Below, one piece after another: positions 1-4,519 of a DNA stretch of 4,519 nt. The position numbers and the translations under genes are program-made. The DNA lies in IMG/VR virus record IMGVR_UViG_2734482581_000010; one strand, given 5' to 3'. The stretch's first letter is position 1, and every line of letters starts with the position of its first letter. The notes beneath the pieces were generated by a model that saw nothing but the letters and a program-made list of their open reading frames with translations, made no database searches and was not told the DNA's origin. This DNA comes from a virus. Its lineage: Duplodnaviria; Heunggongvirae; Uroviricota; Caudoviricetes.

Positions 1-60
1 CTCTCGTCTGGGGAATATCTCCCCGGCAGCCTTCAGGGAAAAATATCATCAGATGGCTGC

Positions 61-414
61 TTAAAAAAAGAACAAATGGTAGTGTCCGCTATTGCCAGTA
101 CACCTCAATTGCTCTGCGGCTTCGCTCAGAGCTGGCGTATGTTCCCGGCCTACTGATTCACACAGGTAATCAACGAAACCGGACACCAGTTTTCGTTCGC
201 GAGGCGTGATCGCCCCACCGACCGGAGTCCAGTAATCGAAACCCAGTTGCAGGAGTTTGAAAAAACGCTTGTGGAATGCGTAGTTACACACACGCTTAAA
301 GTCTGCGTGTATCCACTCACCTATTTTGATTTGATGCAGAAAATCGCAACTCTCCGGCGTCGCCGGGAGAAGTAATCCGGAAGAGGTTTGTTTGACCAGT
401 TGTATATGTGCCAT
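61..414 (-). CDS. hypothetical phage protein, about 117 aa from ATG 414..412 (the ORF track's longer version starts at an in-frame TTG at 456)
   Basis: Open frame on the minus strand. The ATG at 414..412 has GGAG about 8 nt upstream and lies 38 nt after the stop of the upstream gene. The TTG at 456 overlaps that stop but has no better ribosome-binding site. The C-terminus reads ...HLFFF from a T7 run (A7 on + at 63..69), so the 3' end may be affected by a homopolymer error. No recognisable family. Confidence 0.45.
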   Translation of the reverse strand: MAHIQLVKQTSSGLLLPATPESCDFLHQIKIGEWIHADFKRVCNYAFHKRFFKLLQLGFDYWTPVGGAITPRERKLVSGFVDYLCESVGREHTPALSEAAEQLRCTGNSGHYHLFFF

Positions 415-452
415 CGGCTTTCTCCGGTGGCACGGTGTTACACAGCAGGAGT

Positions 453-740
453 TCAATCCTGCTCAAGATTGTAGATGAGTTTATTCTTCAGCAAAAGCAG
501 AAAACCAGCCTTAAAACCAATCTCTTTCAAAACCCGTAATGATGTGACAAATTCGTCCTCACGCAAAATAAAACCGTCCGTCAGAAGTCCATTACAAAAA
601 TAAAATAACACAGCACCGCTCTTCCTTTGTTGAGATTGCAAACATCTAATGCGGCAATGGCTGACAATCGCTCCATTCTCAACGCGCACAGCATAGAGGC
701 CATTTTCACTAAAAATTTCACGCAATTCTTCGATTTTCAT
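453..740 (-). CDS. hypothetical small phage protein (95 aa)
   Basis: ATG at 740..738 preceded by GGAAGGA about 8 nt upstream; stop TGA at 455..453. Same strand and close spacing with the neighbouring gene. No recognisable motif. Confidence 0.5.
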   Translation of the reverse strand: MKIEELREIFSENGLYAVRVENGAIVSHCRIRCLQSQQRKSGAVLFYFCNGLLTDGFILREDEFVTSLRVLKEIGFKAGFLLLLKNKLIYNLEQD

Positions 741-861
741 CTTCAGAATCCTTCCAGATAAATAGCTCTCCCCTGTTCGGGGTCCATCCCTCTTCTCCCT
801 GCGCGCTACTTAAGTGAGTCGATTCTATCTGCGAAGGTGCGCGAATCAAATTCACCGGAAA

Positions 862-914
862 TAAACAACAAAAAACCCGCCGAAACGCTGAGAGATCACA
901 GCGATGGGCGGGTT
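862..914 (-). terminator. intrinsic terminator at the 3' end of the hok-family transcript
   Basis: Minus-strand RNA reads AACCCGCC-(inner CGCUG/CAGCG stem)-GGCGGGUU followed directly by UUUUUUGUUGUUU: a GC-rich stem-loop plus U-tract. It lies about 75 nt downstream of the hok stop. Confidence 0.55.
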
Positions 915-989
915 AAGTGCGGGTGCGTTGAGGATGCCTGACACATCAGAGGTGGGCGGGGATGGGATCAGCTCCCCGCCCGGTCACTC

Positions 990-1145
990 TTACTTCCTGG
1001 ATTCGTAGTCTACGAAGACAGCGACCTCCGTCTGGCCGGTTCGGATTCGTACCTCACAGAGGTCTTTCCTCGTTACCAGTGCCGTCACTATGACGGTTAA
1101 ACAGATGACGATCAGGGCGATTAACATCGCCTTTTGCTGCTTCAT
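990..1145 (-). CDS. hok: Hok/Gef-family type I toxin (51 aa, HokC/HokD-like small membrane toxin)
   Basis: Translation MKQQKAMLIALIVICLTVIVTALVTRKDLCEVRIRTGQTEVAVFVDYESRK has the single hydrophobic helix and the conserved LCE-R-R-G--EVA-F--YE core that I recall from Gef/RelF/Hok proteins. ATG at 1145..1143 is preceded by AAGGAG with a 9-nt spacer. Confidence 0.85.
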   Translation of the reverse strand: MKQQKAMLIALIVICLTVIVTALVTRKDLCEVRIRTGQTEVAVFVDYESRK

Positions 1146-1202
1146 AGCCTGCTTCTCCTTGCCTTTCGGCATGTAAGAGGCTAACCTACATGTGCAAAGC
1201 AT
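990..1202 (-). CDS. mok: Mok-like overlapping leader ORF (70 aa, in-frame N-terminal extension of hok)
   Basis: ATG at 1202..1200 with GAGG about 8 nt upstream. The N-terminal extension MLCTCRLASYMPKGKEKQA resembles the in-frame Mok leader of chromosomal hokC-type loci as I recall it. Whether it is translated is an inference. Confidence 0.5.
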   Translation of the reverse strand: MLCTCRLASYMPKGKEKQAMKQQKAMLIALIVICLTVIVTALVTRKDLCEVRIRTGQTEVAVFVDYESRK

Positions 1203-1258
1203 GAAATTGGCCTCAGATTAATGTTAAGCGTCTTGCCGGACGCGTAATGTTAACTGGG
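1194..1258 (+). ncRNA. sok: putative Sok-like antisense RNA (position approximate)
   Basis: Hok-family loci carry a short antisense RNA across the mok translation-initiation region. On the + strand there is a weak promoter-like pair, TTGCCT (1159..1164) and TAACCT (1182..1187) with 17-nt spacing, pointing into the mok start, and an imperfect hairpin TTAAGCGTC/GACGCGTAA at 1223..1246. The ends are not determined from sequence. Confidence 0.25.
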
Positions 1259-1321
1259 GCTTTTCTCTATCTGCCTTTTGGTGTTCATGCCTGAAGCAGA
1301 TAGCCTCAAGCACCCGCAGTC

Positions 1322-1351
1322 ATTCTACTTACCTCGCCAATATGAAATCAA
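1322..1351 (-). promoter_or_regulatory. putative sigma70 promoter of the mok/hok mRNA
   Basis: On the minus strand: -35 TTGATT (1351..1346), 18-nt spacer, -10 TAGAAT (1327..1322). The predicted start near 1315 lies just upstream of the sequence GCUUGAGGCU, which matches my recollection of the hok mRNA 5' end. Confidence 0.35.
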
Positions 1352-1372
1352 TCAGAAAGGTGCCCCATAAAA

Positions 1373-2059
1373 TCACTCCTTCTCTTCTTTACCGTAGTGG
1401 AGTTGACCAATTTTGATAAGAGGGCGTCCCTGAGATTTGCGGTGTAGATTGGTATCGCGCAGAGAATACACACAGCCACAATATTCCTGCTGATAGAATT
1501 TTTCGCGCTTGCTGATTTCAATCATACGGGACGAGCCGCCCTGCTTGCGCCAGTTATAATCCCAGTACACCATGCCCGGATAATGCGCGACGGCTCGCCG
1601 CCCACAGTCGTTAACCTGCTGCATATTTTTCCAGCGTGAAATGCCCAGTGAACTGCTGATCACACTGAAACCATTTTCAGCGGCGTACAGCGCTGTCCGC
1701 TCAAAACGCATGTCAAAACACATGGTGCAACGGATCCCTCGTTCGGGCTCCCATTCCATTCCTTTGGCTCGTTCAAACCAGTTGTCTGTGTCGTAATCAG
1801 CATCAATAAACGGCACGCCGTGTTGTTCAGCAAAGCGAATATTCTCATCCTTACGAATTAAATACTCTTTCTGAGGATGAATGTTCGGGTTGTAGAAAAA
1901 GATGGTGTAGTCGATTCCCGAGGCCTGAAGCGCCTCCATCACCTCACCGGAACATGGAGCACAGCAAGAGTGCAGTAGTAGTTTGTTTGCCCCGTTTGGG
2001 AGCTCCAATTTGGGCCGTTTGAAATCAGCAACTGTCATAAATATGTTTATTGGGGTCAT
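1373..2059 (-). CDS. queH: QueH-type epoxyqueuosine reductase homolog (DUF208 family)
   Basis: 228-aa ORF with the N-terminal [10 protein letters not shown] motif, internal CTMC and C-terminal QEYCGC motifs characteristic of DUF208/QueH. No clear Shine-Dalgarno before ATG 2059 or the in-frame ATG at 2038, so the start is uncertain. Confidence 0.8.
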
Positions 2060-2206
2060 AAAAATATCAAAGAGTGTAGCATTAGAACGGGGCTATCGGA
2101 AACAGATGTGTGACTGCTCCCCGCCCTTTCGGGTGGTCTCCTGATGATTTGAGGGTGCAGAAATCCCTCCGGTTAAGGATTAAATTTTTAACAGTGCTAA
2201 ATTTAA

Positions 2207-2563
2207 TTATTCAGTTCTGGATTTTGTCGCCCTGCGTATCCGCGCTTTCGCGTTACGCTCAATCTGTATCAGCTTTTCTATATTTCTCCGCCTTTCCTGT
2301 TCCTCCTGGCGCAATAGCCTTACATCATCTGCCAGTCTGGTTTCTCTTTTTGCCACAGAGAGCATCCAGTCAAACGGCTCCACAACCGCACCGCAGATTT
2401 TACAGCGGACCTGACGCTCTTTTTCGTCAACCCGTACAGAGGCGTGATGGCAATATGGTCTTTCCGATGGCTCATAAAGAAAATTAACCTGATTACGAGG
2501 GTCATCCTCTTTTACCGGAAATAAAACGATATTGCTTAACTCATCTTCTGGTTTTATTTCCAT
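2207..2563 (-). CDS. hypothetical protein with Cys/His cluster and basic coiled-coil-like C-terminus (119 aa; alternative ATG at 2620 gives 137 aa)
   Basis: ATG at 2563..2561 is preceded by AAGGAGAGGAG. Translation has YCHH...(11)...CKIC, a possible zinc-binding site, followed by a charged, heptad-like segment RLLRQEEQERRRNIEKLIQIERNAKARIRR. The upstream ATG at 2620 abuts the stop of the preceding gene and has a poorer ribosome-binding site. Confidence 0.55.
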   Translation of the reverse strand: MEIKPEDELSNIVLFPVKEDDPRNQVNFLYEPSERPYCHHASVRVDEKERQVRCKICGAVVEPFDWMLSVAKRETRLADDVRLLRQEEQERRRNIEKLIQIERNAKARIRRATKSRTE

Positions 2564-2620
2564 GCTCCTCTCCTTTGATGCGAATGCCAGCGGTAATTGA
2601 AGCCTGATAGCTAATTTCAT

Positions 2621-3043
2621 TCACAGTATCGCCTCCTGAAAATTACCCTGATAGAAAGCCAGTACACGCTGCATAGCTTCGCTCTTCCGGCACTCGCGAC
2701 AGATTATATTCAGGCGCCTGTCGTAGCGGCGTATTTCTCCGTCAGGTAATGACCAGATAAGGTCCGGATCAACAACAACCGGTTTCCTCACCTTTACTCT
2801 CGAGAGTTTTTTGCGGGCGCTTTGCCAGTCCTTGCGAGCCTGTTCAGACGGGAATAAGCCGTAGCCAGAATTATATACATCACCACTTGCGACCAGTTCT
2901 ATGCATAAGCGACCGACAGACGCACGACTGATACCTGTTTCATCTGACAACTGCCGAATCGTGACCCGACCGTCCTGATGCACGAGTTCCACAATTCGCG
3001 TCTTCAGTTCTTCCCGCTGTTCGGGAGTAAAAGGTTTCGCCAT
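2621..3043 (-). CDS. hypothetical protein with N-terminal helix-turn-helix-like segment (140 aa)
   Basis: ATG at 3043..3041 with AGGAGG 4 nt upstream, 14 nt after the DnaC-like stop. The segment VTIRQLSDETGISRASVGRLCIEL looks like an HTH recognition unit. Family not recognised. Confidence 0.6.
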   Translation of the reverse strand: MAKPFTPEQREELKTRIVELVHQDGRVTIRQLSDETGISRASVGRLCIELVASGDVYNSGYGLFPSEQARKDWQSARKKLSRVKVRKPVVVDPDLIWSLPDGEIRRYDRRLNIICRECRKSEAMQRVLAFYQGNFQEAIL

Positions 3044-3057
3044 AAATCCTCCTGAAA

Positions 3058-3711
3058 CTACTTAACAACCCTCGAATGGCTAACATTCGGACGCCAGCTC
3101 TCCCAGTTAAAATTCACCCAGCGCCCGNNNNNNNNNNNNNNNNNNNNNNNNNNNNNNNNNNNNNNNNNNNNNNNNNNNNNNNNNNNNNNNNNNNNNNNNN
3201 NNNNNNNNNNNNNNNNNNNNNNNNNNNNNNNNNNNNNNNNNNNNNNNNNNNNNNNNNNNNNNNNNNNNNNNNNNNNNNNNNNNNNNNNNNNNNNNNNNNN
3301 NNNNNNNNNNNNNNNNNNNNNNNNNNNNNNNNNNNNNNNNNNNNNNNNGATAGCTGCCGCTAAGTGATTCTTCCCGGTACCAGGTTTTCCGCTGAACGCA
3401 AAATTTGTACACCCGGTCATCAGTTCATCGGCGATGGATTTCGCCTGGCTTAACGCGTATCGCTGGCCGTCGTTCTGCACCTGGTAATTCGCAAACGAGC
3501 ATTTACGGTGCAACGGCTGGATGCCTGAGCGATTCAGAATTTTTTCCACCCGCAACTGGCGATTCAGGCGGTTGATCTCCTCGCTACGTTTCTGGCCTTC
3601 AGCAAGTTGCCACTCGCGCCACTCCGCTACCGTTCTGAATGGGGCGGTTACATGTGGCGGGGTCAGTCGGCGGATGCGTTCCAGAACGCCGCCTGTCGCA
3701 ATATTTTTCAT
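3058..3711 (-). CDS. dnaC: DnaC-like replicative helicase loader (AAA+), phage-type; CDS interrupted by the N gap
   Basis: The N-terminal 121 aa align with my recollection of E. coli DnaC (NRSGIQPLHRKCSFANY vs NRSGIRPLHQNCSFENY) and include Walker A FSGKPGTGKNHLAAAI. The C-terminal WVNFNWESWRPNV matches the DnaC tail WVIFNWDSYRSRV. The middle of the gene falls in the 221-N gap, so length and frame across it are not real. Confidence 0.85.
   Translation of the reverse strand: MKNIATGGVLERIRRLTPPHVTAPFRTVAEWREWQLAEGQKRSEEINRLNRQLRVEKILNRSGIQPLHRKCSFANYQVQNDGQRYALSQAKSIADELMTGCTNFAFSGKPGTGKNHLAAAIXXXXXXXXXXXXXXXXXXXXXXXXXXXXXXXXXXXXXXXXXXXXXXXXXXXXXXXXXXXXXXXXXXXXXXXXXXGRWVNFNWESWRPNVSHSRVVK
3128..3348. 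other. run of 221 N (assembly or scaffold gap, or masked region)
   Basis: Directly visible as n characters. It lies inside the DnaC-like gene. Confidence 0.98.
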
Positions 3712-4339: not shown

Positions 4340-4394
4340 ATCTGCATTACCGTCTATCATTTGTTGATCCGCCCATGCCCAGAAGCGAATAACC

Positions 4395-4519
4395 TGAGGT
4401 AGCCTGAGTTTAACGGACACTCCTTCCTGAAATAGAATGGCATCAGAAGGAGCTAATAATGAGCAGAAAAACCCAACGTTACTCTAAAGAGTTCAAAGCC
4501 GAAGCTGTCAGAACGGTTC
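4395..4519 (+). mobile_element. left end of an IS3-family insertion sequence (partial; continues beyond the window)
   Basis: Terminal sequence TGAGGTAGCCTGAGTTTAACGGACAC starts with TGA and has GGACAC at positions 21 to 26, the same layout as the IS3 left inverted repeat as I recall it. It is followed 64 bp later by an OrfA-type start. Confidence 0.75.
4459..4519 (+). CDS. IS3-family transposase OrfA, N-terminal fragment (continues beyond the window)
   Basis: ATG at 4459 preceded by AGAAGGAG with a 6-nt spacer. Translation MSRKTQRYSKEFKAEAVRTV matches the N-terminus of IS3-family OrfA proteins; I recall this exact start from an IS600-like element but cannot verify it. Confidence 0.8.
   Translation, partial: MSRKTQRYSKEFKAEAVRTV

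Follow-up and report, generated by a model that had tools for sequence, protein, structure and literature searches.

A prophage-borne queH cassette in Escherichia coli and Shigella as a candidate route to queuosine without cobalamin

The virus record IMGVR_UViG_2734482581_000010, a stretch of 4,519 nucleotides that was analysed at its full length and is referred to here as the window, carries on its minus strand an intact gene, queH, for a protein of the QueH epoxyqueuosine reductase family. We propose, with a probability of about 0.6, that this gene, which is found as cargo of lambdoid prophages in E. coli, Shigella and Escherichia albertii, is expressed in lysogens, completes queuosine (Q) there without vitamin B12 (cobalamin) and is of benefit to the host. 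The QueH family, its reaction and the RefSeq annotation of the gene are already known, and the protein itself is not new. What appears to be undocumented is the prophage location of queH in these three hosts, as found for the copies whose flanks were examined. A 2019 survey of 7-deazaguanine genes in phages reported no homologue of QueA, QueG or QueH in the viruses analysed (PMC6884629), and within the searchable literature, which did not extend to the main QueH papers (Zallot 2017, Li 2021), we found no paper on a phage-borne QueH.

Because the enzyme QueG needs cobalamin, which E. coli does not make de novo, epoxyqueuosine (oQ) accumulates in B12-free medium. QueG is reported to convert oQ34 to Q34 in tRNA (PMC5372724) and requires cobalamin (PMC5699537); a passage of PMC6850298 that cites Frey et al. 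1988 gives oQ34 for glucose-salts medium lacking B12 and Q34 for rich medium. QueH is described as a cobamide-independent alternative to QueG (PMC6461909), and in S. aureus the two are described as redundant enzymes with different cofactors (PMC13443448). In the mechanism proposed here, the product of the phage gene would be a working cobalamin-independent iron-sulfur enzyme, with a predicted activity that turns oQ into Q at position 34 of tRNA-Asp, -Asn, -His and -Tyr. A lambdoid phage would have captured queH together with its upstream promoter region from an Enterobacter-like chromosome of the Enterobacteriaceae, and the captured gene would now form a one-gene cassette in a variable slot between a DUF977 gene and the hok/sok locus. 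Acting in the lysogen as a lysogenic-conversion gene, the prophage copy would complete Q without B12 and would thereby give E. coli, Shigella and E. albertii the pair of QueG and QueH that many other Enterobacterales appear to have on the chromosome. We infer that the enzyme acts on tRNA, that an extended -10 element drives its transcription while the prophage is repressed, and that lysogens profit from it when B12 runs short. The elements on which the proposal is built are, in window coordinates:

1373 to 2038, minus strand: queH coding sequence in its most likely form, 221 amino acids plus stop, with its ATG at 2038
1335 to 2109 (approximate), minus strand: queH cassette of about 775 bp, in which the gene is preceded by about 70 nt and followed by about 38 nt
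2073 to 2081, minus strand: candidate extended -10 element TGCTACACT, 43 nt upstream of the ATG at 2038

An earlier reading made from the letters alone (hereafter the sequence-only reading) had assigned the protein to the QueH (DUF208) type, and a Pfam profile search bears this out. PF02677 (QueH) is matched with E=1.9e-65 and 220.6 bits (cut-off 23.5) over positions 1-174 of the 175 in the profile, and a chance match is excluded; an NCBIfam scan of the window protein gave no match to a QueH model. QueH of T. maritima, as deposited in the PDB, is matched at the sequence level with E=5e-22 over residues 20-196 at about 30% identity. Cys25/26, 104/107 and 187/189 (221-residue numbering) align with cysteines of that enzyme, and QEYCGC is present in the translation of the window gene. 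Across 173 sequences from prophages and enterobacteria, seven cysteines (Cys25, 26, 29, 104, 107, 187 and 189) do not vary. In QueH, the cysteines of the CC (N-terminal), CxxC (central) and CxC (C-terminal) motifs hold the Fe-S cluster and the metal beside it, in line with the titles of PDB mutant entries. In line with the sequence matches, an AlphaFold model computed from 32 homologues (mean predicted local distance difference test score 71, predicted template-modelling score 0.73) retrieves T. maritima QueH as all five of its best PDB structural matches, with template-modelling (TM) scores of 0.76-0.78 (normalised to the target) and E values of about 1e-9 to 1e-10. The next matches, PP-loop sulfurtransferases, are at least 10,000-fold weaker. 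The predicted fold matches that of T. maritima QueH, and we hold the identity of the enzyme as QueH to be highly probable.

According to the listing of open reading frames (ORFs), the maximal ORF on the minus strand spans 1373-2059 and encodes 228 amino acids from an ATG at 2059. A second in-frame ATG, at 2038, is the RefSeq start (WP_012421537.1), and its equivalent is used by all chromosomal orthologues. The ATG at 2038 is most likely the true start, rather than that at 2059, because both RefSeq and the chromosomal orthologues place the start there and because the seven-codon extension is closed by an in-frame TAA in one E. coli allele (locus L177). The corresponding PHROGs family, phrog_3217, is classed there under 'unknown function', and its profile starts only at residue 41 of the 228-residue ORF, past CCAPC, an indication that many phage copies are annotated from an internal Met.

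Within the 5426 complete E. coli genomes, queH DNA is present in 995, about one in five, nearly always as a single chromosomal copy, and the RefSeq name of these copies is 'epoxyqueuosine reductase QueH'. The carriers include REL606 and the ST131 strain EC958, and the gene also occurs in Shigella flexneri and E. albertii; K-12 is without it. All copies whose flanks were inspected (FDAARGOS_944, 81009, 405, B-StaR, GPEC657, EC958 and REL606) lie in lambdoid prophages. The same is true of the copies on 80 viral contigs of IMG/VR, and at locus L001 the gene is seen in a full lambdoid prophage context. The isolated Escherichia phage HannyBb has the gene at the same position (locus L002, 8001-8687), annotated there as a hypothetical protein. 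A protein-level search of 50,697 phage records brought up no convincing isolated phage with queH besides HannyBb; the other 24 matches are unannotated metagenomic fragments or have implausible phage sizes and are probably bacterial DNA.

The extent of the cassette can be read from prophages with and without it. Prophage L174 matches window positions 908-1334 and 2121-2903 without the stretch between, so that it keeps the DUF977, phrog_1621 and hok regions but has no queH, and in queH-bearing prophages with other neighbours the homology ends at 2109. Elsewhere the slot between DUF977 and hok is taken up by DUF7167, DUF1627 or Ea22-like genes. DUF977 is found no more than 2.5 kb upstream of queH in 75 of the 80 IMG/VR contigs, and hok follows downstream in 66 of them. 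In being present or absent in this way, queH behaves as a standard prophage cargo ('moron') gene. The sequence-only reading had pictured a lone moron-like gene between a replication module and hok, and this picture holds: the same flanks exist without queH in L174, other cargo occupies the slot elsewhere, and the order DUF977-queH-hok recurs in most of the 80 viral contigs.

Some variation at the borders of the cassette was noted besides. In E. coli strain 405 (locus L175, 1196-2835), a Kiwa KwaB-like gene paired with a membrane-protein gene stands directly after queH in place of hok, so that the slot can take up defence cargo against phages as well. This pair was seen beside queH in a single genome among the loci examined, and an association of queH with Kiwa was dropped. 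The zinc-ribbon gene phrog_1621, which precedes the cassette in the window, adjoins queH in just 14 of the 80 viral contigs and is present in the queH-less prophage L174; it was rejected as a functional partner. Directly beyond the upstream border of the cassette, following phrog_1621, lies a GC-rich hairpin, CCACCCGAAAGGGCGG (window 2119-2140, minus strand); for want of a U-run it does not qualify as a canonical terminator. In prophages that lack phrog_1621, another hairpin takes its place.

In many other Enterobacterales, queH is a chromosomal gene. Orthologues that are 78-93% identical are encoded on chromosomes across the Enterobacterales, with non-phage flanks and a synteny that is kept per genus: queH lies between purL and glrK in an Erwinia species, adjoins tmcA in Providencia and has fixed neighbourhoods in Serratia, Rahnella/Ewingella, Pectobacterium and Proteus. 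It is chromosomal also in Pantoea and Photorhabdus, and in Enterobacter, Kluyvera, Scandinavium and Kosakonia it is placed among metabolic genes. The idea that QueH belongs to other lineages, as held by the sequence-only reading, is not supported in view of these orthologues. The reading had added that a chromosomal QueH in the host lineage would make the gene unremarkable; such a QueH is found for the order and the family, not for E. coli, in which the examined copies are all prophage-borne.

The prophage proteins cluster closely, at 96-100% identity to one another, and their nearest chromosomal relatives are those of Enterobacter hormaechei (93% amino acid identity), Scandinavium (92%) and Kluyvera (91%). 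At the E. hormaechei queH locus, nucleotide homology of 83.5% runs from window position 2102 to 1366 and includes 64 nt upstream of the start; this stretch is almost exactly the cassette. As a separate observation, E. hormaechei B56, whose chromosomal queH resembles the phage copy most, has (locus L094, 5181-5885) a fragment of a phage-integrase-family gene, 234 amino acids long, immediately upstream of queH. Given this fragment, queH may be mobile in Enterobacter too.

Prophage queH is under strong purifying selection. None of the 80 IMG/VR copies is disrupted, each encoding 221 amino acids. The 87 prophage copies comprise 21 nucleotide alleles and seven protein variants, and among these alleles the pairwise ratio of non-synonymous to synonymous substitution rates (dN/dS) lies at a median of 0.025 and does not exceed 0.10, with dS reaching 0.29. 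In the E. coli B strains REL606 and B-StaR, an intact queH sits in one and the same defective prophage of Qin type, which in REL606 is decayed and has a frameshifted integrase gene. Taken together, the intact copies, the low dN/dS and the retention in REL606 argue strongly against a decaying passenger, and they suggest that selection acts in the host and not in the virus alone.

The search of the host genomes found queG in 5426 of the 5426 E. coli genomes, as the sequence-only reading had presumed for enterobacteria; QueH is therefore always a second enzyme in this species. In a published table of clusters of orthologous groups (COGs), the combined count for queG and queH is two in E. cloacae, S. 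marcescens, P. parmentieri, P. laumondii and S. flexneri 2a 301, and one in K-12, O157 Sakai and Salmonella LT2. Since the table sums the two families, a count of two fits one gene of each and is no proof of it. The pair of QueG and QueH thus appears to be ordinary in Enterobacterales, and chromosomal QueH probably often stands alongside QueG. The same table lists one tgt and one queA gene for E. coli K-12, O157 Sakai and S. flexneri, so that the pathway to the substrate is present in the host species.

As to expression, the candidate extended -10 element TGCTACACT is kept in 15 of 15 distinct prophage upstream variants examined. In Enterobacter, Scandinavium, Kluyvera, an Erwinia species, Sodalis and Acerihabitans, the start of chromosomal queH is likewise preceded, at 37-44 nt, by a motif of the form TGCTAnnnT, as TGCTACACT, TGCTACAAT or TGCTATATT, in surroundings that are otherwise diverged. 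In further lineages, promoter-like elements of another kind lie equally far from the gene. From this conservation, transcription is predicted to start near position 2066, and queH would have brought along its own weak constitutive promoter, a candidate for expression from the repressed prophage. The hairpin that lies 3' of chromosomal queH is missing in the phage version, in which the hok promoter region follows directly. A sigma-70-like site (TTGATT-18 nt-TAGAAT, window 1322-1351, minus strand) was also noted immediately downstream of the queH stop codon, at the edge of the cassette; it is presumably the hok/mok promoter. As there is no terminator between queH and this site, queH transcripts may read into the hok locus.

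The conserved gene could also serve the phage rather than the lysogen. In this account, read-through of the early-right transcript after induction or infection would supply QueH, and the conversion of oQ-tRNA into Q-tRNA would tune the translation of phage genes. The arrangement would allow for this, with queH on the same strand as the replication genes and downstream of them, no terminator detected between, and HannyBb, an isolated phage, carrying the gene at the same position. The codons decoded by Q-tRNAs are, however, unbiased in the prophage, the NAU fraction being 0.54 in late and 0.53 in early genes versus 0.57 in a sample of host genes, and the tRNAs encoded by prophages (Gly, Thr, Arg and Met/Ile) include none that carries Q; in the HannyBb stretch examined there are no tRNA genes. 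Moreover, queH came with its own promoter-like region and is intact in the REL606 prophage, which is probably incapable of lytic growth. We thus regard a role in phage translation as unlikely. An activity away from tRNA, on 7-deazaguanine in phage DNA, on a free nucleoside or in defence and counter-defence, would draw on the facts that the slot also holds hok/sok and, in one strain, the Kiwa-like pair, and that phages use 7-deazaguanines in their DNA (PMC6884629). In the 40-kb prophage with a 100%-identical queH (61 annotated features), no DpdA/TGT-like, FolE, QueC, QueD or QueE gene is annotated, nor any other queuosine or 7-deazaguanine gene or a transglycosylase, and the annotations of a 16.7-kb HannyBb stretch contain no DpdA/TGT-family transglycosylase or preQ0 gene. 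The protein is 93% identical to housekeeping orthologues and shows no sign of relaxed or diversifying selection. We know of no oQ-type base in DNA. On these grounds the role in DNA modification was rejected, and the substrate other than tRNA that the sequence-only reading had considered finds no backing in the gene content, in the 93% identity or in the dN/dS of about 0.03; an off-tRNA activity is, in our estimate, highly improbable.

That queH is a non-adaptive passenger in E. coli, spread by recombination at a cargo slot prone to it, would agree with the 82% of genomes that do without the gene, its loss from BL21(DE3), the constant presence of QueG and the highly mosaic nature of the slot. 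A neutral gene would gather non-synonymous changes and frameshifts, whereas dN/dS is 0.025-0.06 at dS values of up to 0.29 and not one of the 80 viral contigs has a disrupted copy; we consider the passenger account improbable.

Several observations nonetheless weigh against a QueH that completes Q in lysogens to the benefit of the host. The same 82% of E. coli genomes live without queH, and in BL21(DE3) a clean deletion of 1,361 bp between 100% identical flanks (locus L180; NC_012971.2, about 1,591,200-1,591,500, compared with loci L176/L181) has taken out queH together with a methyltransferase fragment and the 5' portion of DUF977. We know of no harm from this loss. To our knowledge, no phenotype separates oQ-tRNA from Q-tRNA, so the benefit could be small. 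The presence of QueG in QueH-bearing Enterobacterales is drawn from the combined COG count. With regard to expression, a Shine-Dalgarno sequence is absent before both candidate starts (upstream sequences ctctttgatattttt and ccaataaacatattt), in agreement with the earlier remark that no ribosome-binding site is obvious; this holds for the ATG at 2038 and that at 2059 alike, and the chromosomal orthologues likewise do without. A generic sigma-70 scan found no site beside queH on its strand, and no terminator, and the ground for the promoter call is the conserved motif. TGCTACACT is not reported by the scan because its -35 hexamer is weak. The expression signal, earlier called unclear, is in part clarified by the conserved extended -10 motif that arrived with the gene. 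Finally, Asp13 of T. maritima QueH, which was mutated to Asn in PDB entry 9dco, aligns with Cys29 (codon at window 1952-1954), so that the motif reads CCAPC in place of CCAPD. Cys29 is invariant in the chromosomal orthologues too (173 enterobacterial and prophage sequences) and therefore characterises the whole lineage rather than signalling damage in the phage version. The CCAPC variant may provide a different set of ligands for the metal beside the cluster.

The recognisable genes of the window are all on the minus strand and make up the early-right part of a lambdoid prophage. Besides the queH cassette, the window contains:

4420 to 3718, minus strand: fragments of a replication-initiator gene
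3711 to 3058, minus strand: DnaC/YdaV-like helicase loader (NCBIfam PRK12377), partly masked by N
2621 to 3043, minus strand: DUF977/Ren-like gene (PF06163, E=1e-33; phrog_142)
2207 to 2620, minus strand: small zinc-ribbon gene (phrog_1621, E=5e-56)
1140 to 1315, minus strand: sok antisense RNA (Rfam RF01794, 117 bits)
990 to 1202, minus strand: hok/mok toxin gene (PF01848, E=1e-22)
740 to 453, minus strand: phrog_340 gene
456 to 61, minus strand: truncated NinB/DUF1367 gene
4459: start of an IS3-family (IS600-type) transposase gene

The DnaC-like, hok and IS3 sequences that had been recognised from the letters at the flanks are each identified by these matches (PRK12377, RF01794 and the IS600-type transposase). 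Window positions 1-108 and 4391-4519 match the two ends of an IS600-type (IS3) insertion sequence, both oriented alike, and interrupt ninB and the replication-initiator gene. Copies of an insertion sequence at both ends are typical of short-read Shigella assemblies, so that a composite transposon is not required. The closest species-representative genome is that of Shigella flexneri SFBU1023, with 99.6% identity over 108-3127. The run of N at 3128-3348 is 221 nt long, and the same stretch measures 314 nt in the near-identical loci L001 and L093; the DnaC-like ORF looks 31 amino acids short, through either masking or a real deletion.

In conclusion, related genera keep queH on the chromosome, and E. 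coli, Shigella and E. albertii hold prophage copies that are actively maintained. Expression in lysogens, if it occurs, would make strains differ in whether they carry Q or epoxyqueuosine in B12-free media, which bears on minimal-medium experiments; comparisons of REL606, which has queH, with BL21(DE3) and K-12, which have not, would then be affected. To the wider statement that temperate-phage cargo alters host tRNA modification, such that about one-fifth of strains (REL606 and EC958 among them) carry Q where K-12 and BL21(DE3) carry epoxyqueuosine when B12 is lacking, we give somewhat less than an even chance. If true, it would be the first case in which an enzyme peculiar to the tRNA branch of queuosine synthesis is shown to be disseminated and put to use by a virus, and it would present a hitherto unrecognised variable between laboratory and clinical strains. 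Q modification of tRNA has been linked to Shigella virulence, and the prophage gene may have relevance there and in gut settings in which B12 is contested. It would also exemplify phages that carry a cofactor-independent isozyme into a host reliant on a scavenged cofactor.

Compared to known systems, the window protein is closest in structure to T. maritima QueH (PDB 7LC5, 7LC7 and 9DEU), with which it shares the Pfam family, six aligned cysteines and the fold (TM 0.77), and from which it differs by an extra basic C-terminal tail of about 25 residues. Chromosomal enterobacterial QueH has 78-93% amino acid identity to it, equal length, the same CCAPC, CxxC and CGC cysteines, a leader without Shine-Dalgarno sequence and, in many cases, TGCTAnnnT about 40 nt upstream, yet it stands among metabolic and housekeeping genes, whereas the window copy lies in a lambdoid prophage and has no downstream hairpin. 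QueG (E. coli yjeS) has the same reported reaction and is present in every E. coli genome with queH, but it has an unrelated fold, depends on cobalamin and is a core chromosomal gene; in E. coli, queH is by contrast an accessory gene that prophages carry. With the 'moron' genes of the lambdoid replication-nin region, queH has in common that it is a single gene, present or absent between kept flanks, on the strand of the early operon and with a candidate promoter of its own; unlike these, its product is a housekeeping tRNA-modification enzyme and not a factor of virulence, exclusion or toxin-antitoxin type. The 7-deazaguanine clusters of phages (DpdA with FolE, QueC, QueD and QueE) are likewise phage-carried and related to the queuosine pathway, but they consist of several genes and end in a DNA transglycosylase, whereas in the present case a single gene, for the final and tRNA-specific step, is found with no transglycosylase.

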